A stretch of 14,114 nt of DNA, from NCBI GenBank assembly GCA_029856435.1, contig JAHQXB010000166.1, positions 1-14,114 on the forward strand, in the 5' to 3' direction. Position numbers and translations under genes: made by a program. Every line of letters starts with the position of its first letter. Position 1 is the stretch's first letter. Positions 1 to 14,114 of the stretch are shown piece after piece. Source of the stretch: Candidatus Jordarchaeia archaeon (GTDB taxonomy: Archaea; Asgardarchaeota; Jordiarchaeia; Jordiarchaeales; Jordiarchaeaceae). Under the pieces are notes generated by a model. That model saw only the letters and a program-made list of their open reading frames with translations. It made no database searches and was not told where the DNA came from.

Positions 1-50
1 GCCGATTAGCAGGATCAGTTCCCCCCTTTAACCAGCTTATCTTCTGACAT
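1..50 (-). other. Possible 5' start of a gene running off the left edge, interrupted by a frameshift at a G6 tract
   Basis: GTGAGG (64-59) lies 8 nt before ATG at 50, matching the SD used by genes starting at 5931 and 12151 (7-nt spacing). The frame reads MSEDKLVKGGN-stop (TGA 17-15). The -1 frame after the G6 tract (26-21) reads GELILLIG to the window edge. Only 50 nt are visible. Confidence 0.3.
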
Positions 51-490
51 TCATGCAACCTCACGAAACTTCTTCACAAAGGGGGAACTAATATAGGAGG
101 GGGAGAAAAATAAGTTTTACGCCCCTCTGTGGGGGCAAACGGGAAGGTACCACTAATTGTGCAACGAAGCATAATATATTTAATGGTAGCTCGATATTGC
201 TCATTGCAAGTATTAATTAATATCCATAAGTGATAGTTTTATTTTTTAAACCGAATTTTCGCGGATTTGGAAACTTTAGGGGAGCTACGGGGCTTTTTAT
301 CATTACGCCTCCGGCTTTTGAGAGAATAAAGGTATCAGGCCGGTGAAAACGCAACAACATGTCCCAAAAATATTAGGGAAAAGCACAATCGCCCAAATAG
401 CATCGCAAAATATGCAAAATATCAGTTAAAAAACATTCTGATAATTTACACGCGAGTCACAAGTACTTGAGCAACAGCTGAAAATTTTTT

Positions 491-1369
491 CTAAAGTCGT
501 CTGAGTTTTTCTGGGCGTAGAGGCACCTTTACGGATTTTTTTAGCGCCAAATCGATTACACTTAGTATGTCTTCTTTATCTTGTGGTAGAGTTCCTCCGA
601 GTGGTAAATAGTTTGAAGCGTGGTTGCTTCTAAAAACACAGTTGGTCAACTCTAGATTTTCCACTAGTACACGCATCTCCCTTAGGATTTCTTGCGCGTC
701 TAAAACTTGGAATTTGCCTTCAAGGACTTCTCTGTGTAGGGGGGTTCCGGGAACCACCATTAGTGTTAGCGCTCCAACGTATGGGGGGTCGATATGGTTA
801 AGAGTCTTGGCTGTTTCGACAGCATTTTCCATCCACCTATCCTTGCCACCTAAACCCAGTATTATGGTTACGGAGAGGGTTATGCCTGCATCCATTATTT
901 TTTTGCATCCTTCTATAGTTTGCTTGGCAGTCACCCCCTTACGCATTCTTTTTAGAATTACATCGTCTCCGGATTCCACGCCCAAATAGGCGATTTTTAA
1001 CCCCGCTTTGGAAAGCTCTCTAAGTTCTTCCTCAGATTTTTTAAGTGCATCAGTTGCACAAGCATATAAGCCAACCCTTTCTAGGTGAGGAAAAACAGCA
1101 TATAGCAGATTTAGTATCTCTAGCAAATCCTCGGTTTTAATGCATAGTGCGTTGCTGTCTAGAAGAAACACTCTTCGAACGCCCTCCCCATAAAGTGCTC
1201 TAGCTTCAAGAATATCCTCCTGGATCTCTTCTAAGGGTCGAATTCCAAATTTTTTTGTCAAATTGGAACCACAAAATGCGCAGGTGTTGTTTGAACAGCC
1301 TATAGACGCCTGTATGAGTAGACTTCCCGCCTCAGAGGGAGGACGAAAAACTGGTTCCACATAACGCAA
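491..1369 (-). CDS. Radical SAM superfamily protein (292 aa, function unknown)
   Basis: N-terminal YxxPVFRPPSEAxSLLIQ signature followed by GCSNNTCAFC (Cx4Cx2C), then FLLD, YLGVESG and FRSNHASNYL motifs that I recognise from a widespread uncharacterised radical SAM family. TTG start preceded by GGTGAG (1380-1375). Confidence 0.9.
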   Translation of the reverse strand: MRYVEPVFRPPSEAGSLLIQASIGCSNNTCAFCGSNLTKKFGIRPLEEIQEDILEARALYGEGVRRVFLLDSNALCIKTEDLLEILNLLYAVFPHLERVGLYACATDALKKSEEELRELSKAGLKIAYLGVESGDDVILKRMRKGVTAKQTIEGCKKIMDAGITLSVTIILGLGGKDRWMENAVETAKTLNHIDPPYVGALTLMVVPGTPLHREVLEGKFQVLDAQEILREMRVLVENLELTNCVFRSNHASNYLPLGGTLPQDKEDILSVIDLALKKSVKVPLRPEKLRRL

Positions 1370-1843
1370 AGTTACTCACCACACCACAAATTCCAAGGTG
1401 GAATCAACTTATATTTTTGTCTAAACAAACAGGAATAAATCAATCCAGCACTAGACCTTCACCTCCTTTGCTAGAGTAAAGATCTGGACACGAAAAGTTT
1501 TTCGCGTAAATCGTGGAAGAACATATTCAGATTGGTATAGTTTGTTTTTTATTTTCCCCACTATAGAGTTTCTCACTAATTTTTTCCTAAACCTATCCTT
1601 GACCCGGGGTTATTTAAGGCTTCTTTCACCAAAAGAGGCGGAAAAACCATACTTTCTGGAAGCGAAAAGGAAAAAATTAAATGGAAAGTCTATAGTCATC
1701 CTTTTGTCTAGAGTAGCCCTCATAGAGTTTATAAGTCCAAACTTTTTAAGGGCATCTTCCCTTCTTTCTATCGGCCCAAAACCTGAAAAATGCTTTAAAA
1801 ACTTTTTATGTTCAATAATCGCTAATCATATTCGAAGCAAACT

Positions 1844-3253
1844 TCACCACCAAGGCATAAGGGGAATTTGTAAGTATAGTAGTACAAGGGCTAGGGCCAA
1901 AGGAGGCACCGAAGCCACTAGACCAGGTTTAATCCATTCTGAAAAGTTGATGTTACCAAGTTTCCTTCTCTCTATCATTCCTACGGCCACTATGTTAGCG
2001 GTACTTCCAATCATGGTTAAATTGCCAAAGAGTGTACTTGCAAATAGAATACCCCACCAAAGGGGAAAGGTGAAGACTCCGAGTGATCCTAGTTCTTGAA
2101 TAATAGGTATAATTATGGAGATTGCCAAAACGTTGTCCATGACGGAGCTTAGCAGACCGGATGCAAGAGAAAGACTCAGGAAAATTTTGCTCATATCTAA
2201 TCCCATAAATGATAAAAGTTTTAATGTTAGAAAGTTTGTAACGCCCGTAACACTTAGAGTTGAAACTGCGGCAAAGAACATTATGAAAAAGGATAGTGTC
2301 CACCAGTCAATGCGTTTTTCAATTATTTCTCTTGCTTTTTTCCTATCAAGTATCAATGCTACCCCTCCTGCTCCCAGAGAAGTCCCTAGGAGCATGGTGT
2401 TTTTGGGAAGCTGAAGTAACCCTTCTATCTGGCTGTGGAGGCCTAGAAGCAGTATAGTTCCAAAGAATAGTGCAACGGAAACCAAAAATTCAGAGCGAGG
2501 AACTGTTGGCTTGTCCACATGACTACTTAGAGTATTTATGTTCTGTTCTTGGATATTGACCTCTAGTTGGTTTATATCTTTTCTAAAAAACCTCAAAACT
2601 AATAGCATCATAGTGAAAAGGGATATTATAGATATGGGTGAGGCCCATCTTGCGAATTCTCCGAAGCTTAGGTTAGCTTTGAGAGCAATGACGACCCCCA
2701 CGGGATTCCCTATTACGGTGGCGCTGCTTCCAATATTTGTGGCAAATACAAGCATAATTATGAACGGTATTGGGTTAACCCGGAACCTCACCGTTAGATG
2801 GATCATTGCTGATGCCACAAAAAGAATAGAGGTAACTTCATCAACTAGGGCGGCGAATAGCGCGGCCAGCACCATCATAACCATAACAAGGTGATTAGCA
2901 TTGTAGCCAACAAGAGAAATTATTTTGTATATGAGAATTTCGAAGAACCGTCTTTCTTCAAGAAAACTCACTACAATCATCATTCCTATCAGAAAAAGGA
3001 TAATATCAAAACCAGCAGATTCTACAATGTTTGAAATACGAGTAAGTGATAATCCCAACAAAATAACCATACCTATGAGACCAAACGCTAACCTAAACCT
3101 CCAAAACAAAATAGCTCCCAATACTATGGATGAGAACACAATTATTGAAACGACCTGAGTACTATTCAGTCCAGAAAATAAGGATAAAAAGGTAATTCCT
3201 ATAAGCAACAATAAGTAAATCAACGCAGATCTGGAAGGAGTACTCTTAAACAT
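1844..3253 (-). CDS. SLC13/ArsB-NhaD (ion transporter superfamily) permease, about 469 aa
   Basis: Many hydrophobic segments; LVDEVTSILF, TNIGSSATVIGNP, VMDNV and GNLTMIGSTANIV hairpin motifs. I moved the start from the ORF-track 3448 to ATG 3253 (MFKSTP), which has GAGGA 8 nt upstream. Substrate cannot be assigned. Confidence 0.88.
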   Translation of the reverse strand: MFKSTPSRSALIYLLLLIGITFLSLFSGLNSTQVVSIIVFSSIVLGAILFWRFRLAFGLIGMVILLGLSLTRISNIVESAGFDIILFLIGMMIVVSFLEERRFFEILIYKIISLVGYNANHLVMVMMVLAALFAALVDEVTSILFVASAMIHLTVRFRVNPIPFIIMLVFATNIGSSATVIGNPVGVVIALKANLSFGEFARWASPISIISLFTMMLLVLRFFRKDINQLEVNIQEQNINTLSSHVDKPTVPRSEFLVSVALFFGTILLLGLHSQIEGLLQLPKNTMLLGTSLGAGGVALILDRKKAREIIEKRIDWWTLSFFIMFFAAVSTLSVTGVTNFLTLKLLSFMGLDMSKIFLSLSLASGLLSSVMDNVLAISIIIPIIQELGSLGVFTFPLWWGILFASTLFGNLTMIGSTANIVAVGMIERRKLGNINFSEWIKPGLVASVPPLALALVLLYLQIPLMPWW

Positions 3254-3539
3254 AAATAGGTTCCTCAAATCAGGAGATTTACTAATATGTTCCCTCCGCT
3301 TTATTAAGCTTATGACGATACTATGGCACCCAGTCACAGAATTTTGAATAAAAGGTAATATTTTTGGAATGAAAAAGGATGCAATCAAAATATGCATACT
3401 GTCTTTTCGGGGTAGAAACCGCAAGAATAAGCTTATCTGGGAACACAAAGAATCATCATAAGTTTATTTTCAAAAAATGTCGAATGCATCCATGTTCTGT
3501 AATAAAAGTGTTTTTTGTGGAACTATGTTTTGTTTAATG

Positions 3540-4013
3540 TTACTTTTTTCTGGTTTTTTCTATGATTGCCTTCAGTATTTCGGATAGACGGAGGTCATCT
3601 ATCACCTTGCCCTTTTTGTCCACTACAGGAATGTCTAATAGGTCTAGGCGAAGCATCTTGTCTAATGCAACATTAATATCATCGTCCAACGTTACTGTAG
3701 CATCCCTAGTTTCTGGGCGGACTAATCCTTCGGCTGTTTTGGACAGCGTTACTCTAGCAGTGTTCATTAAGTCGTCTATATCTTTAGCTCTTGGCACTCC
3801 AGTCATCACTTTTGCCCAGAGGAGGAGGTCGTATCGAGTTATTACTCCCTTAAGTTTCATCTTTTCATCAACCACAAATATTCCATGGATTTCAGGCTTT
3901 TCTGCAAAACTTTTGATGATGTCCTCTATCGGAGTTTTACCATCAACAATTAGAGCCAGCATTGGAGTAATTAATGCATCTTTAACGCGAAGGGAGATCA
4001 TATTTTTCTCCAT
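3540..4013 (-). CDS. Stand-alone CBS-pair (Bateman) domain protein
   Basis: Two CBS repeats: IHGIFVVDEKMKLKGVITRYDLL and LLDIPVVDKKGKVIDDLRLSEIL. An alternative start at ATG 4001 has GGAG upstream. Confidence 0.9.
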   Translation of the reverse strand: MEKNMISLRVKDALITPMLALIVDGKTPIEDIIKSFAEKPEIHGIFVVDEKMKLKGVITRYDLLLWAKVMTGVPRAKDIDDLMNTARVTLSKTAEGLVRPETRDATVTLDDDINVALDKMLRLDLLDIPVVDKKGKVIDDLRLSEILKAIIEKTRKK

Positions 4014-4247
4014 CCAAAATTTTGTAGTATCCGAGAAGAACTGAAAACGGGATAAGAGGTTATGTATTATTATATAAATTTTTTATACTCTTTTAAGCTT
4101 ACCCTCATAATTTTTTCAAATTTACTATTAGTGATGCTCATTGTTCTATATCCCTAATTTTAATAACACATCTCTGTGCAAATTAATTAATTAGATTGCG
4201 TAAATAATTCAATTTCTACTCAAAATTTGGGGTTATTTAGGGTAAAC

Positions 4248-4414
4248 GGGACCTTGTCTTAAGTATGTAGTTTGTTGACATGAATTGTGTGCAGGGTTAG
4301 CTGGTCTTACCCTTTTTTGGGCTTACTTGGAAGGAAGCCCTGTTAAGCCTCCTTTTTTGAGAGGAACAAACGATCATGCATAGAAGGGAAGCCACATACT
4401 TAAGACCAGAGCCC
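4248..4414. mobile_element. MITE-like non-autonomous element (167 bp)
   Basis: Terminal inverted repeats 4248-4268 GGGACCTTGTCTTAAGTATGT and 4394-4414 (reverse complement GGGCTCTGGTCTTAAGTATGT), 18/21 identical with a perfect inner 13 bp. Flanked by 9-bp direct repeats AGGGTAAAC (4239-4247) and AAGGTAAAC (4415-4423), 8/9 identical. No ORF inside. Confidence 0.72.
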
Positions 4415-4424
4415 AAGGTAAACT

Positions 4425-4440
4425 GAAATAAACTTTAAAT
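4425..4440 (+). promoter_or_regulatory. Putative BRE/TATA promoter of mfnE
   Basis: Purine-rich GAAATAAAC followed by TTTAAAT (4434-4440), about 40 nt before ATG 4481. Confidence 0.4.
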
Positions 4441-4480
4441 TAGTATAGTAGATTTCTAATTTGAACATGGGACGATTGAG

Positions 4481-5170
4481 ATGGAGTCATTCAACTTTGT
4501 CATTAGGATTGGTGGAAGTTTATCGAAGAGCAAGGCCACCCTGAAGAAGCTCTTTAATGTACTCGCTGAAATCTCTAAAACCCACAAATTTTTGGTAGTC
4601 CCGGGTGGCGGAGCTTTTGCAGATCTGGTTCGCGAAGTCTATCATAAGTTCCATATTTCTGAGGATGTAGCTCACTGGAGTGCTATACTTGCTATGGATC
4701 AAATGGGTTTTTTCTTTTCTAAAGTTCATCCTAATATTAGGATTGTTAATGAGTGGAAGGAGGCTTTGCAAACAGAACTGGGAACGATACCTGTTCTTCT
4801 TCCATCCAAGATAATGCTTGATAATGATCCCCTGCCCCACTCTTGGGATGTCACTTCCGATTCTATCGCAGCTTACATTGCACACATCACAAATACTAAA
4901 AAGTTGTTTATTCTTACTGATGTTGATGGAGTATTTACCTCGGATCCCAAGATCCAGCCGGATTCAGAGTTGATAGATGAAATTTCGGCGGAAGAACTAG
5001 CCCAGAAAAATGTTACCACCAGTGTGGATAAAGTATTTCCAAATCTGGTTTCAAAATATAAGTTGGAGTGTCTAGTTCTTAACGGTAAAGTTCCCGGGCG
5101 ATTAATTCAAGCCTTGAAAAACAAAAAGGTTAAGGGAACCCACATATACTCTACATGCGAAGGCAGGTAA
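4481..5170 (+). CDS. mfnE: Amino-acid-kinase-fold protein, probable [5-(aminomethyl)furan-3-yl]methyl phosphate kinase (methanofuran biosynthesis)
   Basis: IGGSL, VVPGGGxFADxVR, AHxxAIxAMD, LPHSWDVTSDSIA, TDVDG, TSVD and NGxxPxR motifs match my recollection of the MJ0458/MfnE group. mfnB lies about 0.9 kb away. Confidence 0.8.
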   Translation: MESFNFVIRIGGSLSKSKATLKKLFNVLAEISKTHKFLVVPGGGAFADLVREVYHKFHISEDVAHWSAILAMDQMGFFFSKVHPNIRIVNEWKEALQTELGTIPVLLPSKIMLDNDPLPHSWDVTSDSIAAYIAHITNTKKLFILTDVDGVFTSDPKIQPDSELIDEISAEELAQKNVTTSVDKVFPNLVSKYKLECLVLNGKVPGRLIQALKNKKVKGTHIYSTCEGR

Positions 5171-5188
5171 AGCTGATTCTGAGAACTC

Positions 5189-5213
5189 GAGGAGCACTAG
5201 TCCTCCTTTTATT
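5189..5213 (+). terminator. Possible terminator between the convergent mfnE and GTPase genes
   Basis: GAGGA-N7-TCCTC hairpin followed by CTTTTATT in the 50-nt convergent gap. The stem is short, so support is weak. Confidence 0.3.
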
Positions 5214-5220
5214 CGTTTGG

Positions 5221-5931
5221 TTAAGTGGTGAAATCTTTTATTATGAGTTTGGGTTGATCTATAACCTTTTTAATGGCGGGTGTTAACCAGAAGATTGAGG
5301 TTCGCCAGTCAACCTCCACGTAGCCTCTCAGTTCCAGCCAGTTTAGGTGTCGGCGCAGGTCTCTAATGTCTGTGTTTAACTCTTCCATTAGGGATTGGAT
5401 TCCTTTGACCTCTCCATCATATTTGTTCATTATCTTTAAGAGATTTAATTCCTTCTGGACTGTGACCAAAAGCAGTACGCGTAGTGCATTTTCAGCGTTC
5501 TGCCCGGTTTTTGCCACAGTTGGGATAATGTGAATATCTGGGGGAATATTCAAATCCTCTCTTATCTGGGCAGCTTTTCTTGCTCCGGGCAGATCCTGTT
5601 TATTTGCTGCTACGGTTATAGGGACTCCGGGAAGGAATTCTTCTACCTCTCGCCATATTCCTTTTGCCTCTCCGTCTGAGTTCTTATCTTGGCTGTCAAC
5701 CAAAAATAAAACGCCATCAGCACCCTTAGACAAAACTTGACGGAGGATTTTAAAGTGTTTTAATCCGGGTGTCCCAAATAGGTGAATCTGTAAATTTTCA
5801 ATGTCAACTATGCCGTAATCTAGTGCCACGGTGGTATCCCTTTTGTCTATGCTGATGCTCTTGCCCTTTGTTAGGCTTCTAATAATTGTGGACTTGCCAG
5901 AATGGTAACTGCCTGTAACTAAGATTTTCAA
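5221..5931 (-). CDS. MglA/CvnD-like (COG2229-type) small GTPase with a C-terminal winged helix-turn-helix extension
   Basis: G1 GSYHSGKS, G2 TTVALDYG, G3 LFGTPG, G4 NKQD, G5 TVAK. Residues ~160-225 (IQSLMEELNTDIRDLRRHLNWLELRGYVEV..IFWLT) follow the wHTH pattern. TTG start with GTGAGG at 5944-5939. Confidence 0.88.
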   Translation of the reverse strand: MKILVTGSYHSGKSTIIRSLTKGKSISIDKRDTTVALDYGIVDIENLQIHLFGTPGLKHFKILRQVLSKGADGVLFLVDSQDKNSDGEAKGIWREVEEFLPGVPITVAANKQDLPGARKAAQIREDLNIPPDIHIIPTVAKTGQNAENALRVLLLVTVQKELNLLKIMNKYDGEVKGIQSLMEELNTDIRDLRRHLNWLELRGYVEVDWRTSIFWLTPAIKKVIDQPKLIIKDFTT

Positions 5932-5962
5932 TATACCGCCTCACTTGGTTTAGTTATGTATA

Positions 5963-5969
5963 ATTTAAA
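5963..5969 (-). promoter_or_regulatory. Putative TATA box of the GTPase gene
   Basis: TTTAAAT on the minus strand about 30 nt before the TTG start, within a 145-nt gap after mfnB. Confidence 0.35.
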
Positions 5970-6076
5970 GGTTCAACCGTTTAAAAAAGCTTTGTATTTT
6001 ATTTTCGCAGGGAAGAGAAAGCCCAAATTTAACAATTCCACAAAGAGAGGCTTACAGGTGATTCTCAGTATTATCT

Positions 6077-6811
6077 TTATACGTGAATTTTGGTTTGTGC
6101 AGTTGCGTGCAAGATGTTTGCCAGTTCTTGGACTCTCTCCCTCGTTATTCTTCCGTGTATTCTGTCTGATTTTTCGCACGCCGCACCCCTTATACCCACT
6201 ACATCTGCACCCAAATCCTGTATTAGGGGGAGGCTTTCCTTTTTTATTGCGCCCGCTAAAGCGACTAGAACTTTTCTATTGTGGGCATCTTGTATAAAAC
6301 CTTCGATTTCTTCTAATGACCATAAATCAAATAAACCCGTACCATCTTTGATAGCGGTATCAACCATTGCAACATCTGCACCTGCTTCCGATGTTATCTG
6401 AGGAATTTTAAAAGGGTCTATAGCGTTTATTCTATATGCATCTGCGTATCCTGCTATAACAATTTTGAGGCTTGAATTATAGGTTTTGACGCTTCGAACA
6501 ACTTGTTTTGCCAAGTAAAGAGCTTCAGGATAAGTATTCACTCCATATAATCCTACTTTCACATAATCCGCTCCGCTTACAGCGGCTCCTAGGGCTGCTA
6601 AAGCTGCTGTGCCGGGTTTGTTGGGAAAGTCCCCGATTGTAGCGCTGACTTCCAGCTCTCTGGGAGTTATGTCTCTGATACGTCGAATTACCCAAGGAAA
6701 ATTGGCTCCCAGTGAACCTTCTAGAGGATTTTTTACATCAATAATATCAGCGCCACCCACTATAGCCTCTAGAGCTTCTTGTTCGTCTCTCGGGCTGATA
6801 AGTAACTTCAA
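6077..6811 (-). CDS. mfnB: (5-formylfuran-3-yl)methyl phosphate (4-HFC-P) synthase, methanofuran biosynthesis
   Basis: Full-length match to my recollection of MfnB/DUF556: LLISP, GGADIIDVKNPxEGSLGANFPW, GADYVKVG, AGYAD, MVDTAIKDG, ALAG, GIRGAAC. I prefer TTG 6811 as start because AGGTGA (6822-6817) lies 5 nt upstream; the track's GTG at 6820 falls inside that SD. Confidence 0.93.
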   Translation of the reverse strand: MKLLISPRDEQEALEAIVGGADIIDVKNPLEGSLGANFPWVIRRIRDITPRELEVSATIGDFPNKPGTAALAALGAAVSGADYVKVGLYGVNTYPEALYLAKQVVRSVKTYNSSLKIVIAGYADAYRINAIDPFKIPQITSEAGADVAMVDTAIKDGTGLFDLWSLEEIEGFIQDAHNRKVLVALAGAIKKESLPLIQDLGADVVGIRGAACEKSDRIHGRITRERVQELANILHATAQTKIHV

Positions 6812-6840
6812 CGGAATCACCTGTCAGGAAATTTTGATTA

Positions 6841-6864
6841 TCAGCAGTATATATTTTTTGCTGA
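6841..6864 (-). promoter_or_regulatory. Palindrome TCAGCA-N12-TGCTGA enclosing the putative mfnB TATA box (candidate operator)
   Basis: Perfect 6-bp half-sites at 6841-6846 and 6859-6864. The spacer reads AAAAATATATAC on the minus strand, about 35-45 nt upstream of the start. Confidence 0.5.
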
Positions 6865-6961
6865 ACAAAGTTAATCCTATATAAGGATAGGACTTGATTT
6901 TTGGTTTTTACCTTTTCTCCTCTTGGAGATATAAATGAGAATATTTTTTGCTAATTAGTCT

Positions 6962-6984
6962 AGGGGAAAAAGGGCGAAAAAGTT
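6962..6984 (-). terminator. Oligo-T archaeal terminator candidate after the 807-aa gene
   Basis: AACTTTTTCGCCCTTTTTCCCC directly follows the TGA stop on the minus strand (two T5 runs). Confidence 0.4.
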
Positions 6985-9408
6985 TCAACTTATTATTCTG
7001 GGTTTTGACTTTCTTGAATAGCTTAGAATTTTATTGTATTCTTTTCCAATTATTTGTGCCATTGCTGGTGCTATGTGTCGCTCTATGTCTCCCTCCATGA
7101 GGGTGCTGGGTGTAATTCTTGGTGATAGTTTTCCCTCCCTTTGCAGATCGGCTAGCAAGTCTTTGACGAATTTAATGGCTTTATCGTAGGTTATTTGCTC
7201 AACTTCTTCTCGCTTAAAGCTGCTATATATTGTGTTCATGGATAGATAGTAGAATTTAGCTAGAGCTTCGAGATTTTCAAGCTTAATGGGGGTAACGGTT
7301 CCGTGTTCTTGGCAGTAGGTGTCGCCCAATTCTTTTGCGCATACTGGGCAAACCGTTTTTCCAACTTCGGTACGCAGGTAGAAGAGTATCATAGCTGCTG
7401 TTCTACGATTGTCGGCTTCGCTCCATTCTAATTGGGCAAGCTCAACGCCACTTAAAGCCCTCATAGCAACGTTCACTTTTTTCTCAATTAGTCCTATGGG
7501 TTCGACTTTCTCGAATCTCTCCATCCTTGCAAGTTCCTTCTTCTTTTCCTCCTTCTCCTTTGCCACATCTATGCGTTTTCTTTTTTCTTCCTGTGTTTCG
7601 AAGTAGCGATGCGTTATGTCGAAGGCGGTGGCGTAGCTTACTGGTTCAATTTTTTCTATGTTGAGAGGCTTTTCGACTACACTTAAAAATACGGGGCTGG
7701 GTGTGCTTTTCAGTTCTTTGATTGATTCATCTAGGGACTTGCTACTTATGCGCGCCCAAATGAATCCATTTATTTGGTGAGAATCAAGGTGTGGAAATAT
7801 TTCCTTTAACTCTTGTTGGCGTAGCATTATCAAATCAAAGAAAAGTTCTTCCTTCGAAGCTCTGAGACTGGGTTCGGATTCGTCTGCAAAGGCTTTGTAG
7901 ATGATTCCGAATCTTTCAAGGTCATTCTTTAGCCTCTCGTAAATTTCAACTACACGACTCAAGTGTGTGAAAGAGTCGGAAATTAGCTTGTAGTAGGCGT
8001 CATCGTTAATTTTTCGGATGAAACTTTCTATCTCACTCATAGCCAATAATTCTCTTATACTTCCTACCTTCAAATCTTTTAGTATAAGGTTAACCTTCTG
8101 TTCAATTTCGAGAAGTTCTTTTAGTTCTTCAGGAGGTGGAAGCATTATGTATTTCTTGAGTTCTCTTAGTACAAGATCATCAATAGCACTTAATTCTGAA
8201 GAAGGTTTTGTATATGTCCAAAGAGAAATTTTTCCTTCATGAACTTTGTATCCCTGACCTTTAAGGCGCGGTATGACGTTTTTTACTAGAGTGTTTCTTA
8301 TTCTAAGAAGACGTGTAATTCTTTCAATTATGTATTTGAAGTCTTCAGCACTAATGTTAGCCTCTTCCAGTTTTTTGGTTAATTTGTCGAGGGGAAGTGT
8401 AAGTGAGGAGCAGAGGGAGTACCAATCTTCGAATCCTTGTTGTTTCATACGTTGTTCAATTTCTTCTCGAGTTTCGTCTAATAGGTATGTTAGAAAGGAT
8501 TCTAGCGCTATGGGTTCGGCGGCCTTTTTAATTATTTCGCTAGTAATAGCTTTCCTGCAAATTTCGTACAAATCGGTTAAAGTTGTTTTCTTAGCGTCGT
8601 AATCGTCTAGTATCTTTAAGAGTTCTAGTTTCAACTTACATGCATCAATATAGGTTTTAAGATCTAATTCTTTTTGGGGAATATTTCTAAACATATTTTC
8701 TGTTACAATTAAGGAAGCGTGTTCTAAAACCTCAACATTGCTAGTTAGAGTTTCAAAATCAATTGTCTCTTCTAATTTTTTTCTCAATTCCTTGTGGGTT
8801 GAAATTTCTATACACTCCTCTTCGTGAGGACCCTTGATGTCTTCTTCGAGATCTATGGGTTTTGGTTTAAATCCATAGGCAAGTTTTATTTTTTCGACCC
8901 TAATTTGGGGAGTGAGGTAGTTTATGTTTCCCATAAAGTCTATGAAGTGCGTTCTTGGGTATTTTGTGTATACTTCAACCAGTATATCTTGAATTAGTTT
9001 CTGGAGTTTAGACTTAGATTCTCCCTTGAGCCTTATCTCGGCGGCTCTCAATTGAATTTCTATCTGTTTCCTAAGTAGTTCCCTTTCTTTCTGAAAGGAG
9101 TCAGCTAAGAGAGTGTTCACTTCCCCATAGAGTTCATCCCACTGCTTCTTGGCTAGCCCCTTCAGTTCTTCAGGCGCTTTAACCTCACCTGAAGTAAGGT
9201 CAACCGTGTGCACGCCGCGGTAGTGATAAATGTATGAAACAACTGCGGCCTTAACGAAATCGGAGAAGTACGCTCTTTCCCCCACTATTGAAATCAAATA
9301 TTTTTGCTCTGATTCAGATTTTAGGCGTGTTGCTAAAGCTTGTCTAATAATAAATTCTTGAGCTACTTCTCTTAAAACCATCCTTTGTGAAGTTAGCCAG
9401 TCGGACAT
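6985..9408 (-). CDS. Large mostly alpha-helical hypothetical protein (807 aa) with a C-terminal Cx2Cx8Cx2H zinc-binding motif
   Basis: Uninterrupted 2.4-kb ORF; ATG 4 nt after the upstream gene's stop; CPVCAKELGDTYCQEH at aa 687-702 (nt 7350-7303); E/K/R-rich helix at aa ~604-634. No family recognised. Confidence 0.9.
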   Translation of the reverse strand: MSDWLTSQRMVLREVAQEFIIRQALATRLKSESEQKYLISIVGERAYFSDFVKAAVVSYIYHYRGVHTVDLTSGEVKAPEELKGLAKKQWDELYGEVNTLLADSFQKERELLRKQIEIQLRAAEIRLKGESKSKLQKLIQDILVEVYTKYPRTHFIDFMGNINYLTPQIRVEKIKLAYGFKPKPIDLEEDIKGPHEEECIEISTHKELRKKLEETIDFETLTSNVEVLEHASLIVTENMFRNIPQKELDLKTYIDACKLKLELLKILDDYDAKKTTLTDLYEICRKAITSEIIKKAAEPIALESFLTYLLDETREEIEQRMKQQGFEDWYSLCSSLTLPLDKLTKKLEEANISAEDFKYIIERITRLLRIRNTLVKNVIPRLKGQGYKVHEGKISLWTYTKPSSELSAIDDLVLRELKKYIMLPPPEELKELLEIEQKVNLILKDLKVGSIRELLAMSEIESFIRKINDDAYYKLISDSFTHLSRVVEIYERLKNDLERFGIIYKAFADESEPSLRASKEELFFDLIMLRQQELKEIFPHLDSHQINGFIWARISSKSLDESIKELKSTPSPVFLSVVEKPLNIEKIEPVSYATAFDITHRYFETQEEKRKRIDVAKEKEEKKKELARMERFEKVEPIGLIEKKVNVAMRALSGVELAQLEWSEADNRRTAAMILFYLRTEVGKTVCPVCAKELGDTYCQEHGTVTPIKLENLEALAKFYYLSMNTIYSSFKREEVEQITYDKAIKFVKDLLADLQREGKLSPRITPSTLMEGDIERHIAPAMAQIIGKEYNKILSYSRKSKPRIIS

Positions 9409-9412
9409 TTCA

Positions 9413-12151
9413 TCACTCTCCCATTTGTCCGTGTGTTTTCAGCCAATTGTTTCCTATAGAAAGCCTTATTCTGCCAGGGGCGGCATAATCGTACAGAGCT
9501 AGGTACTCTAAACTGGGGTCATCCTTATTTTTGAGATATAACCTTGTGGGTCGAGGTAACAGATTACTGAAGGCTTTAAGATATGTGTATTCTATGTGGT
9601 CGAGTAGACCTTCAATAAATTTAATGGGAGGCCTAGATTGAATCTCCAAAGGCTTCATTGAGCTTAGAAATGACGTTATTTCTGTTTTAAAAAGCTTGTA
9701 GGTTTCCTTATTTAAGTTTAATAGTGTGGAATAGTTGCTAATGACCAAGTTAGTGGCCGCAATTAGTTGTTCGCGCTTAGTGATTTCTTGGTTATACTCA
9801 TTCATCTCATCTTCGAGTGATTGTAATTCTTTCAACAATTGATTATAGGCGGAGTTTAGACCTCTGATTTCTTCATTTATTTGAGTCAATTGATTTTCTA
9901 GCACTTTAACATCTCTAGCCATTTTTTCAATTTCAATTTTCAGCTTTTCGATAGAAGAGCGAATATTATCAGTTTGAATTTTCAACTCATCCTCGCTTTT
10001 GCCTCCAACAACCGCTGCTTTTAAGTCTCTTAGTCTCTGTATTTCTGTCTCTATCTTATCGATTAATATCTTCTTGGCTTCTATCTCTTGGTGGAGCCGC
10101 AGTGGCATTTCCCGTTTAACTTTTATTTCCTCCTCGATTTTTATTCTAATACTTTCTTTGGCATCTAAATCGCTTTTCACCACTTTAATTTGTTGGCCAA
10201 CGGCGTATATCCTACTTTTTACCTCCTCTACTTTGTCATTCCACTGCTGGATTTCGTACTGGATACTTTGGCTTACACTACGCAAATTGTGAAGAGGCGC
10301 ATACTCACCACTCCCCTTTTCTCTCTGTTCTCCAACGAAGTTCACGAAGCTTTTTATCAACTTGAAAGGAGTTATTTCTTTATCTCTTATCTCCTCCTTG
10401 AAACTAGAAATCCACTCTCTGGCTAAATCTCTCCACTGAGGGTAATCTTCAAATTCTTGTTCAATGTGACTTGAAAAGGCGTCGAGAAAAACATCACTTG
10501 AAAGCTTGTCCGGCCTCTTCTTTATAAATTTAGGAAGAACATCATAGCTCAGAATATAGTCAGCAAGTCCGGGAACCACTTCCGTCATTCTGTTGATTAT
10601 GTAGTCTTTAGTGTTTTTCAAAAACGCTTGTTCGTCTGGCCCCACCCTTTGTATGATATTATTGATTGCGATTTCTAGAATTTGTGATGGAGATGTTATG
10701 CTGTCTCTTTCACTAAACCTCATTGAGGCGTCAATGATATCATTTTTGATTGATTTTCTGAGATCGTCCAGCGTCCACTTCGTTGAACCAAATAGCGTAT
10801 ATTTACCTTCTATCTCGTTTTCAAGGAGGGACTTGAAAGCTTCCAAAAATTTTTTTATGAGTTCCTTTTGCATCTCGTCCTTCTTTAAATTCTCAAGAAA
10901 CTCTTGGAATGTCTGTTCAGCCAATTCCTTTTCACATTTTATTGCCAGGAAGGAGGAGAGAGCTTGATTAAAAACTTCCAGTGCCCTCTTAGAATGCGCC
11001 ATAAAGTAAGACAGATCACCTTTAAATTCCCACGCCCAGAACTCTCTAGTTTCTTCTCCGTACTCCGAAATAAGATATTCTTGAAAGGATTTGCCCAAAG
11101 AATTCATTAAAGGAAACGCGGAATCTTCGCGTAACATTTTCTCGAAACTTTCTAGGTGGCCGTCTAATTTTGATTTTATGCCACTCTGAATAAACATGTT
11201 CCCCCGCTCTTCGAACTTGCCAAGAATTCCTGAACATTCGATAAGGAATTTTTTCCCCTCTTCAAGAAGCCATTGGGGCTGCTGCGGGGCAGTGTTTTCT
11301 AATTTATCTATGAATGCGTTATATAGGGCTTCAACAACACTTTTTTCCACAACTTCTATAGTGTAGTCGTTGATTAGTGAAAGAATCTCTCTTCCCAAGG
11401 CGCCTATATCACTTATCAGGGTTTGGATAGCTGTTTTGGTAAATATAATATGTTGAAAATGTTCAAGAAGAACTTCTTCTGAGCCAGGTATATCCTGAAT
11501 ACTAACATTTTCCACAGTGGCTTTAAAACCGGCGGGCCTCAGAGAATAGTCAACTTCAAAGCTCCCAGTAACCACAGTATCTATGTCAATACCCAAATGT
11601 CTAATAAAGTCTCTTCCATATTTTTCACGATATTTCTTCTGAGTTACTTCACCATGAACACGCCTAGTGAATCTATCAACAAATTTTTCTAAAACGTTAG
11701 CTCCTTCAGACTTCATATTTAAACCGGATAAGTAGCACGCCTTCTCTATATCAGTTAATTTTCTGTTCAATTCATCAGCTAACTCAATTGAACGAATCAC
11801 ATCTACTAGACCCTTCTCTTGCTCCAAAAGAACTAGGAAGTTTGAATGCTCCTCCCATAATCCCACTGTTAAGGCTAACACTTCAGGTAGAGTACCACCC
11901 CACACCATACGTGAAAGTTCAAATTCCACCGCACGAAGCTCAACCCCGCTAGTCTCACTGATCAAGTTGTTCAATTTATGTATCAGATAGCCTATGTTTG
12001 AGGCTAACATTTTGGCTTTAGGGAGTGAAACTGTTTCCGGTCCCACAAGAGATCCAAAAGAGCCAGTTAAATTAGAGCTGTATCCGAATACTGAAACCAC
12101 AGCCTTTTTTAAGGCCTCTGCGGTGCTTGGAGCAGTTTCTCTACTCGCCAT
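9413..12151 (-). CDS. Large hypothetical protein (912 aa): alpha/beta N-terminal domain, helical core, long coiled coil (aa ~620-830) and beta-rich C-terminal tail
   Basis: Uninterrupted 2.7-kb ORF; GTGAGG SD at 12164-12159; clear 4-3 heptad spacing at aa 630-662 and 730-797; no Walker A/B or ABC signature seen. Confidence 0.9.
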   Translation of the reverse strand: MASRETAPSTAEALKKAVVSVFGYSSNLTGSFGSLVGPETVSLPKAKMLASNIGYLIHKLNNLISETSGVELRAVEFELSRMVWGGTLPEVLALTVGLWEEHSNFLVLLEQEKGLVDVIRSIELADELNRKLTDIEKACYLSGLNMKSEGANVLEKFVDRFTRRVHGEVTQKKYREKYGRDFIRHLGIDIDTVVTGSFEVDYSLRPAGFKATVENVSIQDIPGSEEVLLEHFQHIIFTKTAIQTLISDIGALGREILSLINDYTIEVVEKSVVEALYNAFIDKLENTAPQQPQWLLEEGKKFLIECSGILGKFEERGNMFIQSGIKSKLDGHLESFEKMLREDSAFPLMNSLGKSFQEYLISEYGEETREFWAWEFKGDLSYFMAHSKRALEVFNQALSSFLAIKCEKELAEQTFQEFLENLKKDEMQKELIKKFLEAFKSLLENEIEGKYTLFGSTKWTLDDLRKSIKNDIIDASMRFSERDSITSPSQILEIAINNIIQRVGPDEQAFLKNTKDYIINRMTEVVPGLADYILSYDVLPKFIKKRPDKLSSDVFLDAFSSHIEQEFEDYPQWRDLAREWISSFKEEIRDKEITPFKLIKSFVNFVGEQREKGSGEYAPLHNLRSVSQSIQYEIQQWNDKVEEVKSRIYAVGQQIKVVKSDLDAKESIRIKIEEEIKVKREMPLRLHQEIEAKKILIDKIETEIQRLRDLKAAVVGGKSEDELKIQTDNIRSSIEKLKIEIEKMARDVKVLENQLTQINEEIRGLNSAYNQLLKELQSLEDEMNEYNQEITKREQLIAATNLVISNYSTLLNLNKETYKLFKTEITSFLSSMKPLEIQSRPPIKFIEGLLDHIEYTYLKAFSNLLPRPTRLYLKNKDDPSLEYLALYDYAAPGRIRLSIGNNWLKTHGQMGE

Positions 12152-12203
12152 AGTTAACCCTCACTTTTCAGAGTTCTTTAGCTTAAAATATGTATTGGGC
12201 AAT

Positions 12204-12218
12204 TATTTAATGTTTCTT
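12204..12218 (-). promoter_or_regulatory. Putative BRE/TATA of the 912/807-aa gene pair
   Basis: AAGAAAC-A-TTAAATA on the minus strand, about 50 nt before ATG 12151. Confidence 0.35.
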
Positions 12219-12283
12219 AAAAAAACCGGCCGCAAATCCCCACCGTTAAATAATATTCCATTTGCAGGTATACTTGTTCAAAA

Positions 12284-12299
12284 CGAAAGAATCTTAAAT
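12284..12299 (+). promoter_or_regulatory. Putative BRE/TATA of the zinc-ribbon gene
   Basis: CGAAAG-AAT-CTTAAAT about 35 nt before ATG 12335; divergent from the large-gene promoter. Confidence 0.35.
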
Positions 12300-12334
12300 C
12301 TATGTTATAATCATAAACATTAGGGTGTTAAATA

Positions 12335-12724
12335 ATGGTTAAAGCATTACCAATATTGTTAAGTATTGTACTTGGTGGCCTTGGTATATTCGCAATCATA
12401 TTGGCTTTTGCCTATCCAAGTGTTCTAGCGCTAATTGTTGGAGCCATCATAATACTTATCAGTATAGTAAGCCTAGCTTGGGGCCTAAACCAGAAGGAGG
12501 ATGAAGAAACTCCTAAGGAGCCAAAACAGATTAAAGTGAAAGCCGAAGAAGCAAAAGTTCCCATAAAAATCACTAAACCCGAACCGGAAAAGTATAAACC
12601 CATTAAACCCACTAGAGCAACCGTGCTTGCACCTAACTCAATTTATTGCCCATACTGTGGTAAACAAATACCAAAAGACAGTATGTATTGCCCAAACTGC
12701 GGATCATATTTGGAAGGAGAATAA
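12335..12724 (+). CDS. Membrane-anchored zinc-ribbon protein (129 aa)
   Basis: Two hydrophobic helices (aa ~5-50), a P/E/K-rich linker, and C-terminal CPYCG-x9-CPNCG. AGGGTG SD-like sequence upstream. Confidence 0.85.
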   Translation: MVKALPILLSIVLGGLGIFAIILAFAYPSVLALIVGAIIILISIVSLAWGLNQKEDEETPKEPKQIKVKAEEAKVPIKITKPEPEKYKPIKPTRATVLAPNSIYCPYCGKQIPKDSMYCPNCGSYLEGE

Positions 12725-12911
12725 CAATTTAAAAAGGGTTCCTGATTTTTGGAATGTCGCTTCGTATATTCTCCCATTCCTCCTTGTAAACTCACCTCTT
12801 GGTGACGTAAATTTATTTGTCTCCACTTCTCTGGTGGGACTTTAAACTGCGAAATGAGCTTAATAACCCCCCTTCAGTACTTTCGAATTGTTAATTGTTT
12901 TTATATTTTTA

Positions 12912-14114
12912 TCACCTCATTTTTAACTTTTCATCAATGGTTATATTGGGGGTAGAAGCAGAACACGGTCCCAAATACGAGGATGTGGATGGTGCGCTGG
13001 GCCTCTGGAGGCGTTCTCCCCCCACTACTTTGATATGCTGAGGAGGAGGGTGAGAAAGTTCTACAATATGATTCCCACAAAGAACACCCGCCGCCCAAAA
13101 GTTGTCCCTGTTTGACATAGTACGGCAGCGGAACCACCTCCCATCCCGACAGGATGGCTCTACGCCGAACCGGGAGTTGAAGGCAACAACCACACACACC
13201 ACTCCCCGCCCGGAGTCCCTTGTCCGCAATCAGAAATGTGAGTTCGCCATACCTGCGGCAGATGATCAGCCAGACCTCATGCTCGCAGCGTCCCCCAGAC
13301 TCATCGCAGCGCATAGTATACTTGAATCTGCCTTCACCCCCCTCAAGGGTTGAAGGTTGTTCTCCTCAACCAGCCTTTTTACGGGCTCATTCACTGGCCC
13401 CAGATTATGAATCTTATCCCCCCGCGGTCAAGCTCCTTCACCAGGTTTGTGTCGTAGAAGCCTCCGTCCAGCACCAATAGGCCTATTTTTACCAGGCGTT
13501 GGGCTTGTTCTACCAGTTTTAGGACGATTTCCGCCACCTTGTCCCCCCTTTTTCTACCACTTCTCCCAGATTGTAGAGGTATCCATCCTCGCAGATGTAG
13601 GCAGTTACAAACCTAAAAGAAGCGCTGGTGCCAATACTGGGTGATGCAGATTTATTCGGTTCCATCTCTCTAATAAGGCTCCAAATCGTGAAAGAAGCCC
13701 TATAAACACCCCTTTTTGAGACGAAACCGAACAATTCTACATCACCCCAATACTGTTCGAAAGATGTTTTTAGCCGTTTTTACTTAAGGGAAAATTATGT
13801 GCTCTGTGGCTGTTTTTGGCGAGAAAAACGAGTTAAAGTGCGCAAACAAGCCTCCAGATAAGCCCATTCCGCTCCCTCAACCCAATTTTTCGAACACTAT
13901 TGGCGTTAGTGCCCTCCCTCCTCTCGGTGATTACATGTTCTGACTGAGAACCTCCATAGTAGGGCTCATCACGCAGTCGATGGCCAGTAGTGTTTTCCTC
14001 TGCTTCATCTCTCCTCTGAATCGGGTGTTGTTTGAGGCTCTGGTACAGTACTCGTTCACCGCGGCTTAGATCTGTTCCATGTCTGGTGGTTTGAGTTTCT
14101 CCAGTACGGCGTCT
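12912..14114 (-). pseudogene. ISH3-like DDE transposase pseudogene
   Basis: Stitching minus-strand frames gives LLAID (D 13978-13976) / DEPYYGG..REGTNA / SFRFVTAYICEDG / LLVLDGGFYD (D 13468-13466) / FNSRFGVE (E 13160-13158)..RCRTMSN / RRVFFVGIIL*NFL. This follows the ISH3 pattern AID..PYYG, GT..F.YATAY, LDRGFY, RWGIE, LYN as I recall it. In-frame stops at 14068-14066 and 13063-13061, several frameshifts, and a 271-bp insertion. Confidence 0.82.
13632..13902. mobile_element. Composite MITE-like insertion (271 bp) inside the transposase
   Basis: Flanked by 10-bp imperfect direct repeats GCGCTGGTGC (13622-13631) and GCGTTAGTGC (13903-13912). Ends are CAATAC...CTATTG. Removing the insertion plus one repeat copy restores the frame EGTNASFRFVTAYIC. 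Two internal units: 13632-13747 (30-bp IR, 25/30) and 13748-13902 (18-bp TIR, 16/18). Confidence 0.78.

Follow-up and report, generated by a model that had tools for sequence, protein, structure and literature searches.

A Small GTPase Lacking the Catalytic Glutamine Is Fused to a Predicted Winged Helix in Many Asgard Archaea

Here, we analyzed a stretch of 14,114 nucleotides (nt) from the genome of a Candidatus Jordarchaeia archaeon (assembly GCA_029856435.1, contig JAHQXB010000166.1, positions 1 to 14,114; hereafter the window), in which an uninterrupted open reading frame (ORF) on the minus strand, 5221-5931, encodes a 236-amino acid (aa) protein from a TTG start codon at 5931. This protein joins a small GTPase domain of the Ras superfamily to a C-terminal domain predicted to fold as a winged helix, and sequence comparisons place it in a monophyletic, mostly single-copy family that was found in this analysis only in Asgard archaea. 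The reading that we favor, at a rough probability of 0.42, is that the winged helix provides a nucleic acid-binding output that is gated by the nucleotide state of the G domain, DNA being a somewhat likelier ligand than RNA.

Architecture of the Protein

A reading of the DNA made without database searches (hereafter the sequence-only reading) had proposed a GTPase followed by a winged helix, and both domains lie where it had placed them, at aa 1-156 and aa 160-225 (nt 5454-5257), as supported by Pfam and by an AlphaFold2 (AF2) model of the whole protein. This model, whose input was an alignment of 36 sequences (A1), has a mean predicted local distance difference test score (pLDDT) of 88.8 and a predicted template modeling score (pTM) of 0.85. 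The elements of the protein are as follows.

5221-5931, minus strand: whole gene of the GTPase-winged-helix protein (stop codon 5221-5223), with orthologs in many Asgard lineages
5464-5931, minus strand: G domain, aa 1-156, six strands and five helices in the AF2 model, no N-terminal amphipathic helix
5890-5913, minus strand: G1/P-loop GSYHSGKS, aa 7-14, with G12 and K13 invariant in A1
5830-5835, minus strand: G2 Thr-Thr, aa 33-34, invariant in A1
5761-5778, minus strand: G3 and start of switch II, FGTPGL, aa 52-57, with Gly for the Asp of DxxG and Leu for the catalytic Gln
5593-5604, minus strand: G4 NKQD (guanine specificity), aa 110-113, with K111, Q112, and D113 invariant
5509-5517, minus strand: G5 VAK, aa 139-141, SAK in most relatives in the alignments
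5257-5454, minus strand: predicted winged helix, aa 160-225, three helices, a two-strand wing, and a further helix (AF2, VIA, Foldseek)
5323-5367, minus strand: third ("recognition") helix, aa 189-203, ending in the family motif L..E.R (L196, E200, invariant R202)
5281-5322, minus strand: beta-hairpin wing, aa 204-217, with D208-W209 invariant in the 36 A1 sequences and altered in the Thor-type clade (A3)
5224-5256, minus strand: C-terminal tail, aa 226-236, a short low-confidence helix with a hydrophobic/basic pattern (pLDDT 74, then 47)

A G Domain without the Catalytic Glutamine

Over aa 2-153, the protein matches Arf (8.2e-13), MMR_HSR1 (1.9e-12), and Ras (3.4e-09) above the Pfam thresholds and NCBIfam small_GTP (TIGR00231) at 1.3e-13, also above cut-off, while the modeled G domain aligns with Arf6, Sar1, and Arl13B at VIA Z-scores of 20-22.5 and has MglA (6h17) as its best Foldseek match. 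By its G1, G4, and G5 motifs and its Ras-like fold, it is a small GTPase of the Ras superfamily that does not carry the DxxGQ motif. The earlier description of a complete G1-G5 set thus holds for the nucleotide-binding motifs and fails for the canonical catalytic set, as the G3 motif, FGTPGL, is an MglA-type form that lacks both the Asp and the Gln.

This lack extends to the whole family. Among 101 fused members, the Gln position is occupied by Leu in 91, by Met in 5, and by His in 4, whereas the Gln is kept (FGTPGQxRF) in 17 of the 18 nearest relatives without the C-terminal domain. Since the residue is replaced in 100 of 101 fused proteins versus 1 of 18 unfused relatives, its loss is, as judged from these alignments, a shared derived character that accompanies the winged helix, and it matters for any GTP-sensing model, a point that the sequence-only reading had left out of account. 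A hydrophobic residue in place of the catalytic Gln characterizes the HAS-GTPases, and the Leu (91) and Met (5) members have such a residue at the Gln61-equivalent position; the fourth P-loop position, at which Asn is a signature of cation dependence, is not conserved, with His here, Arg in Odin-type members, and Asn in Hod/Heimdall-type ones.

The replacement of the catalytic residue in 100 of 101 members, together with the absence of an adjacent roadblock gene of the GTPase-activating protein (GAP) type, could be taken to mean that the G domain does not cycle and merely scaffolds the winged helix, in a pseudo-switch that is constitutively GTP-bound or indifferent to nucleotide; as a matter of fact, the Q-to-L change at the equivalent position of Ras blocks hydrolysis. 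We nevertheless find this quite improbable. Across the family, G1, G2, G4, and G5 show at most slight variation, which argues for selection for the binding of guanine nucleotide and Mg. The switch II residues F60 and R64 are also invariant in the fused family, and R64, which is invariant only there, could take part in catalysis. Moreover, many Gln-less GTPases (Rap, Era, MnmE, FeoB) hydrolyze GTP by means of other residues or of partners.

Fold of the C-terminal Domain

In the AF2 model, the last helix of the G domain (aa 146-159) is followed by helices at 162-170, 177-185, and 189-201, by strands at 205-208 and 213-216, and by a helix at 218-225. The expectation that the C terminus would model as a winged helix-turn-helix was borne out when this part was modeled alone (aa 157-236; pLDDT 82.3), the domain scoring 93-96 in the two-domain model versus 89-91 alone. 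The best VIA match of the isolated domain is a DNA-bound MarR (5h3r; Z 9.4, 78 residues aligned, root-mean-square deviation [rmsd] 4.2), and 18 chains at Z >= 8, nearly all helix-turn-helix (HTH) regulators, cover 74-80 of its 80 residues; further matches include the Pyrococcus regulator homolog 1ub9, FabT-DNA, CggR-DNA, SmtB, and Csa3. The top Foldseek matches are likewise CggR-DNA and MarR (probability about 1, TM-score 0.6-0.69), with weak E-values (~0.02), which are no surprise for 80 residues. At the level of the predicted fold, the domain is a genuine winged HTH of the MarR/ArsR-like kind.

No Pfam HTH family reaches its threshold, the best for this protein being HTH_12 at 14.5 bits versus a cut-off of 21.4. 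When the C-terminal domains of 25 members were scanned against Pfam up to E = 1, all sub-threshold matches were to HTH families (HTH_45 at 1.5e-4, IclR at 0.007, HTH_12 at 0.012, ArsR at 0.016). Searching the ESM Atlas with the C-terminal domain was uninformative, all scores being <= 0.76, and a full-length relative returned only its own "putative GTP-binding protein" cluster. Among the whole-model matches listed by Foldseek and VIA, none is a solved structure spanning both domains, the alignments covering essentially the G domain over 140-170 residues.

The most conserved positions of the winged helix are L165, L196, E200, and R202, the last of which is invariant and stands at the end of the third helix, and position 198 is a conserved exposed aromatic residue or Arg. 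The third helix of this protein contains R190, R193, R194, H195, and R202; across members, the C-terminal domain has a median isoelectric point of 9.0 and a median net charge of +2 (range -2 to +9), and its tail varies from clade to clade.

Distribution and Origin of the Family

The proteins nearest to the ORF are named after Candidatus Freyarchaeota/Jordarchaeia, which are Asgard archaea, and proteins with both domains (223-248 aa, 31-97% identity, 92-100% coverage) were found in many Asgard lineages, with source labels of Frey-, Jord-, Odin-, Loki-, Hel-, Wukong-, Sif/Borr-, Hod-, Heimdall-, Hermod-, and Thorarchaeota. At E <= 1e-20, 140 of 201 Asgard genomes have a match (66 of 86 among the high-quality ones), nearly all matches spanning both domains and nearly always with one such copy per genome; three Asgard families gave no match to this query (0/21, 0/7, and 0/5 genomes). 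That the fused family is so widely distributed, keeps almost always to one copy, and is conserved across 30-97% identity indicates that it is under selection.

The same distribution bears on the idea that the two-domain ORF is an artifact of gene-call read-through, frameshift, or mis-assembly joining two genes. This idea has no positive support, and was raised only in view of the TTG start and of a metagenome-assembled source genome in 181 contigs (3.54 Mb, completeness 97.8%). Orthologs of families f1 and f2 keep the TTG start. The uninterrupted two-domain architecture recurs at 223-248 aa in well over a hundred independent genomes, closed chromosomes included, and the junction from alpha5 to the winged helix is modeled at high confidence, which makes an artifact hardly conceivable.

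In a maximum-likelihood tree of the G domain only, rooted at the midpoint and built without reference sequences of MglA or CvnD, the 24 fused proteins sampled all fall in one clade (ultrafast bootstrap 99, SH-aLRT 97), the sister of which consists of proteins without the C-terminal domain, namely stand-alone GTPases, KaiC-fused GTPases, and two paralogs of this genome. A profile that we made from the C-terminal domain at 25 loci was also run against a set of 1.84 billion representative proteins. At E <= 1e-3 it retrieved 33 of them, which comprise full-length members, a single apparent chimera, several multi-stretch repetitive proteins, short entries (most of those read being N-truncated fragments that retain recognizable G4/G5), and, at the margin, generic HTH proteins such as a GntR regulator at 9e-4. 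Within this genome, no other six-frame ORF matches the C-terminal domain better than E 0.06. These searches suggest that the C-terminal domain is found essentially only in the fused family, and because the fused proteins form one clade and the profile is essentially exclusive to them, both the domain and its fusion seem to have a single origin and not to have come apart since.

A limited literature search, which included Asgard GTPase surveys and a survey of the prokaryotic Ras superfamily, retrieved no description of this fusion, and databases name the family members only "GTP-binding protein." An AF2 survey of the MK-D1 GTPases describes a small group of "MglA bacterial-like" GTPases, and no winged helix is mentioned in the text and supplement searched. 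The sequence-only reading had allowed that the architecture might prove to be already common and characterized: common it is, among Asgard archaea, and characterized it is not in the literature searched.

As for GTPases across this genome, 17 matches to the GTPase query were found, about ten of which have a recognizable G3 motif. A 231-aa paralog (L006:1456-2151, minus strand; G000:C29) is of the same G-domain type, with IFGTPGH (His at the Gln position) and a ~60-aa N-terminal extension that resembles an AbrB/SpoVT swapped hairpin by eye and matches no Pfam family at E <= 0.01. Another locus (L008; G000:C132:23179-26634) encodes on one strand a KaiC-like ATPase (264 aa), a KaiC-like-GTPase fusion (390 aa), and a Roadblock/LC7 protein (136 aa); KaiC-GTPase fusions, 370-410 aa in length, are likewise found among the relatives of the query that do not have the C-terminal domain. 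The genome has 15 Roadblock/LC7 matches, of which five are clustered on contig C5 beside a match to the GTPase query.

Is the Winged Helix a Nucleic Acid-Binding Output?

A sensor domain followed by a winged HTH is the standard one-component design of prokaryotes, and Era-type Gln-less GTPases carry fused RNA-binding domains. The predicted architecture fits a one-component regulator, and the protein may be pictured as a self-contained nucleotide switch whose built-in winged helix would be the output module. Without the Gln, intrinsic hydrolysis would be slow, in which case the protein would either report the GTP/GDP state or await a trans-acting activator; hydrolysis might also occur only on GTP-dependent dimerization, as in other Gln-less G proteins.

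With regard to the coupling of the two domains, AF2 predicts that the winged helix follows alpha5 directly and packs rigidly on the G domain. Five residues of the latter, R64, D72, E95, L100, and P101, are fixed or almost fixed among the fused proteins, unlike in the unfused relatives, where they vary, and by the modeled secondary structure they lie on the switch II helix or its end, on alpha3, and in the alpha3-beta5 loop. Going by the general Ras fold, D72, E95, L100, and P101 presumably sit at the end of the domain that is remote from the nucleotide, where alpha5 exits and leads into the winged helix. These five residues and, in the winged helix, E200 and R202 likely form an inter-domain coupling interface, by way of which the switch II helix would pass the nucleotide state on to the winged helix.

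We favor nucleic acid binding as the output because the best fold matches and all the weak family matches are DNA-binding HTH domains and because the domain is mildly basic; DNA binding by the winged helix is plausible, and the indicators in the sequence are mixed. A more specific form, in which GTP-paired G domains would bring two winged helices onto DNA and hydrolysis within the dimer would cause release, seems to us unlikely.

Several observations weigh against a nucleic acid-binding output. The positions at which bases or backbone are usually contacted, in the N-terminal half of the third helix and at the wing tip, vary from clade to clade, with an acidic tip (G-D-E) in the Thor-type clade. 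Some members have a domain with a net charge as low as -2, and a hand count gives +1 for that of this protein. Conservation at the level of this family is expected with a conserved partner more than with operators that diverge, and the conserved E200 and R202, with position 198, could form a protein interface; the inter-domain interface is itself proposed from conservation alone. No conserved palindrome was found upstream of this gene. Finally, the PDB is rich in DNA-binding winged helices, so that the identity of the top fold matches is biased and the argument from fold is weakened. Overall, protein docking, RNA binding, or dimerization would fit the data about as well as DNA binding.

Two palindromes of the window had been put forward by the sequence-only reading as candidate targets, and both were rejected as operators. 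The one at 4434-4465 is weak, with 10-nt arms at 90%, and lies in AT-rich spacer, and the one at 6841-6864 consists of 6-nt arms around the TATA-like box of the nearby mfnB gene and is not kept in a same-genus relative.

Genomic Neighborhoods and Protein Docking

Winged helices can also be protein interfaces, as in ESCRT-II and in NPRL2/3 of GATOR1, or as in FeoC, whose winged helix binds the G domain of FeoB. By analogy with these precedents, the winged helix may be a protein-protein module that docks an effector or regulator (e.g., a roadblock/longin-type GAP or a TPR protein) or that homodimerizes, which would make the protein a switch with a built-in adaptor. We consider this possible, albeit with some doubt. 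It agrees with the variability of the "DNA-contact" positions, with the acidic wing of the largest clade, and with the near-neutral charge of many members, as well as with the predicted rigid packing and the charged residues that are co-conserved on both domains; on the other hand, likeness in sequence and fold points to HTH families of the regulator type, and no other protein of the genome has a related domain able to pair with it.

A docking partner might be encoded nearby, and we compared the neighbors of the gene in about 45 loci from some 15 families, with the following result.

Frey/Jord: mfnB, mfnE
Thor-type: TPR protein
Odin-type: helical, faintly TPR-like protein
f9/f12: HdrA-MvhD fusion
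f4/f18/f21: RNase P Rpp30, Pop5
Heimdall-type: THUMP, Cgi121, ThrRS

TPR proteins thus adjoin the gene in two unrelated arrangements. In Thor-type loci (L032-L042 and L076; families f7 and f26), a TPR_12/SNAP-like protein of ~290-320 aa is encoded no more than ~50 nt downstream in 11/11 loci, and in Odin-type loci (L024-L030; f3 and f20) a different helical protein of ~380-400 aa with a faint TPR signal is encoded upstream in 7/7 loci, ~70 nt from the GTPase gene in the locus that was measured. It is possible that these neighbors are clade-specific effectors, for which the TPR protein SgmX, an effector of MglA-GTP, provides a precedent (PMC7519303, PMC7668184). However, the Thor-type and Odin-type groups are not orthologous, and no TPR protein was found beside the gene in f9, f12, f16, f21, f4, and f18. 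More generally, a conserved partner gene was rejected as a candidate, as the neighbors differ by clade and none is universal across the loci compared.

Roadblock proteins fare no better as encoded partners. No roadblock gene is visible around the gene, as the sequence-only reading had remarked: none of the 15 Robl_LC7 matches of the genome lies on this contig, and no roadblock gene is among the recurrent neighbors in 40+ loci. A partner combining a roadblock with a winged helix was also sought in this genome and rejected, four long-frame Robl_LC7 proteins (roadblock plus Pro-rich tail, roadblock plus coiled coil, zinc ribbons plus roadblock, and double roadblock) having been read and found to contain no winged helix, a search that did not extend to longin-type proteins; this, too, speaks against docking.

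The RNase P, THUMP, Cgi121, and ThrRS genes that adjoin the GTPase gene in some clades, mostly on the opposite strand, leave open an RNA-related role, which would be analogous to that of Era.

In f9 and f12 (L058-L067), the orthologous gene adjoins that of a ~1,150-aa fusion of HdrA-like flavoprotein, ferredoxin, and MvhD/FlpD domains, the two genes being head-to-head in the loci whose orientation was read.

Comparison with Known Systems

MglA groups 2-5 have been defined by a GTPGQ G3 motif and by a Thr that replaces, in G2, the Arg finger of group 1; group 4 is archaeal, and conserved neighborhoods were not found for all groups (PMC4316618). This survey of the prokaryotic Ras superfamily mentions no fusion of a G domain with a winged helix (PMC4316618). 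The fused family resembles groups 2-5 (COG2229) in its GTPG without Asp (G53-T-P-G56 invariant), its T33-T34, NKxD, and SAK motifs, and its lack of an N-terminal helix, and its nearest unfused relatives, to which the fused clade is sister on the tree, carry FGTPGQxRF. It differs by Leu, Met, or His in place of the Gln, by the C-terminal winged helix, and by the lack of a coupled roadblock/MglB gene. From these sequence features, we infer that the G domain descends from the MglA-group-2-5/COG2229 type.

The actinobacterial conservons (Mfp in mycobacteria), to which the sequence-only reading had compared the gene, include a GTPase of the same broad type, CvnD, with a separate roadblock protein, CvnB, and likewise join a small GTPase with a small extra protein, CvnC (DUF742) being classed as HTH-like. 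They differ in that CvnA-D form a four-gene operon, whereas a single polypeptide is found here, without a sensor kinase, roadblock, or DUF742 gene. The earlier view, of a COG2229/MglA-like G domain and a winged helix truly fused in one chain and with no CvnC/DUF742 gene adjoining, has held. A fusion of the CvnD plus CvnC type was rejected: DUF742 is absent from the Pfam scan of 25 domains (E up to 1), and its sole match in the genome has an E-value of 0.06 and lies on another contig.

The N-terminal G domain of FeoB is Gln-less and works with FeoC, a winged helix of ~80 aa that was first taken for a transcription factor. The combination of a Gln-less G domain with a winged helix is thus common to both systems, and such a pairing need not mean DNA binding. 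Unlike here, FeoC is a separate protein and FeoB a membrane transporter; FeoB_N matches this G domain weakly (E 0.0075), and the Pfam scans detected no FeoC signal in the C-terminal domain.

One-component regulators such as the CARF-wHTH protein Csa3 (6wxq) also place a sensor before a C-terminal winged helix on one chain, and the winged helix of Csa3 aligns to the C-terminal domain with a Z of 8.1 and an rmsd of 2.5 over 70 residues. The sensor here is, in contrast, a G domain of the Ras superfamily, a role for which we know of no description, and DNA binding is here a putative property. Direct attachment of a module after alpha5 is seen both in Rag/Gtr (G domain plus roadblock) and in Era (G domain plus KH), the latter of which carries a hydrophobic residue where the Gln would be and uses its added domain to bind RNA; the fold of the added domain and the lineage of the G domain are different here, NCBIfam Era scoring 34.7 bits versus a cut-off of 237. 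Among solved structures, the best sequence matches are those of Asgard ArfR (8ouk-8oun; E 1e-15 to 5e-12, 28-31% identity in Foldseek), from which, as from Arf, the protein is set apart by the absence of an N-terminal amphipathic helix (strand beta1 stands at the very start of the chain, and the P-loop starts at residue 7) and of DxxGQ; the Asgard Arf study treats MglA2-5 as a group separate from ArfR, and only as an outgroup class.

Local Organization of the Window

The gene lies between two others. On the same strand, 6077-6820 (minus) encodes MfnB, (5-formylfuran-3-yl)methyl phosphate synthase (Pfam 4HFCP_synth, 8e-82; NCBIfam, 342.9 bits versus a cut-off of 341), and on the opposite strand, 4481-5170 (plus) encodes a protein of the amino acid-kinase fold whose best match is MfnE (180 bits, under the 300-bit cut-off). 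By their sequence assignments, these flanking genes fit an archaeon with a methanofuran-dependent pathway. Both families of the order retain the arrangement mfnB, GTPase, mfnE, at GTPase identities as low as 53%, and it was not seen in other Asgard classes in the neighbor survey; this sandwich may reflect inherited synteny or a functional link. A further element precedes the gene.

5959-5969, minus strand: TATA-like box TTTAAATTATA, ~30-38 nt 5' of the TTG start, recognized by inspection only

Since this box and a run of six T (5983-5988) that follows mfnB are both retained within the genus, the GTPase-winged-helix gene probably has its own promoter.

Elsewhere in the window, two adjacent large genes on the minus strand, 6985-9408 and 9413-12151, encode proteins of 807 and 912 aa that match no Pfam or NCBIfam family above threshold. 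The 807-aa protein has a short Cys/His-rich motif that may bind zinc, and the 912-aa protein an SMC/Rad50-like coiled-coil stretch (~aa 580-840). This pair and a divergent zinc-ribbon gene (12335-12724, plus strand) recur at 69-75% identity in a closed Freyarchaeum genome (L003). In the final 1.2 kb (12900-14114), the GC content rises from ~0.39 to 0.47-0.50; this part contains only short ORFs without Pfam matches and a single imperfect inverted repeat of 22 nt (13744-13765/13885-13906), and no Rfam family, tRNA, or direct repeat was found in it.

Significance

Asgard archaea are the closest prokaryotic relatives of eukaryotes, and their GTPases are studied as forerunners of the eukaryotic switches of trafficking and signaling. 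Small GTPases usually consist of a single domain and exert their switch function through separate effectors. Here, a small GTPase of the MglA-2-5 type that has lost the catalytic Gln and gained a winged helix defines an uncharacterized family present in ~70% of the Asgard genomes searched, and as a compact, expressible protein it allows the nucleotide state to be tied directly to binding as a read-out. Were the winged helix to bind DNA, this would be a first direct link from a Ras-like switch to the genome, and were it to dock a protein, a dedicated partner interface would be identified; either outcome would also show how Gln-less G domains of the MglA type hydrolyze GTP. Should the protein prove to be a GTP-gated DNA binder, Asgard archaea would possess a conserved, mostly single-copy switch between GTPase and transcription or chromatin that has no described counterpart.

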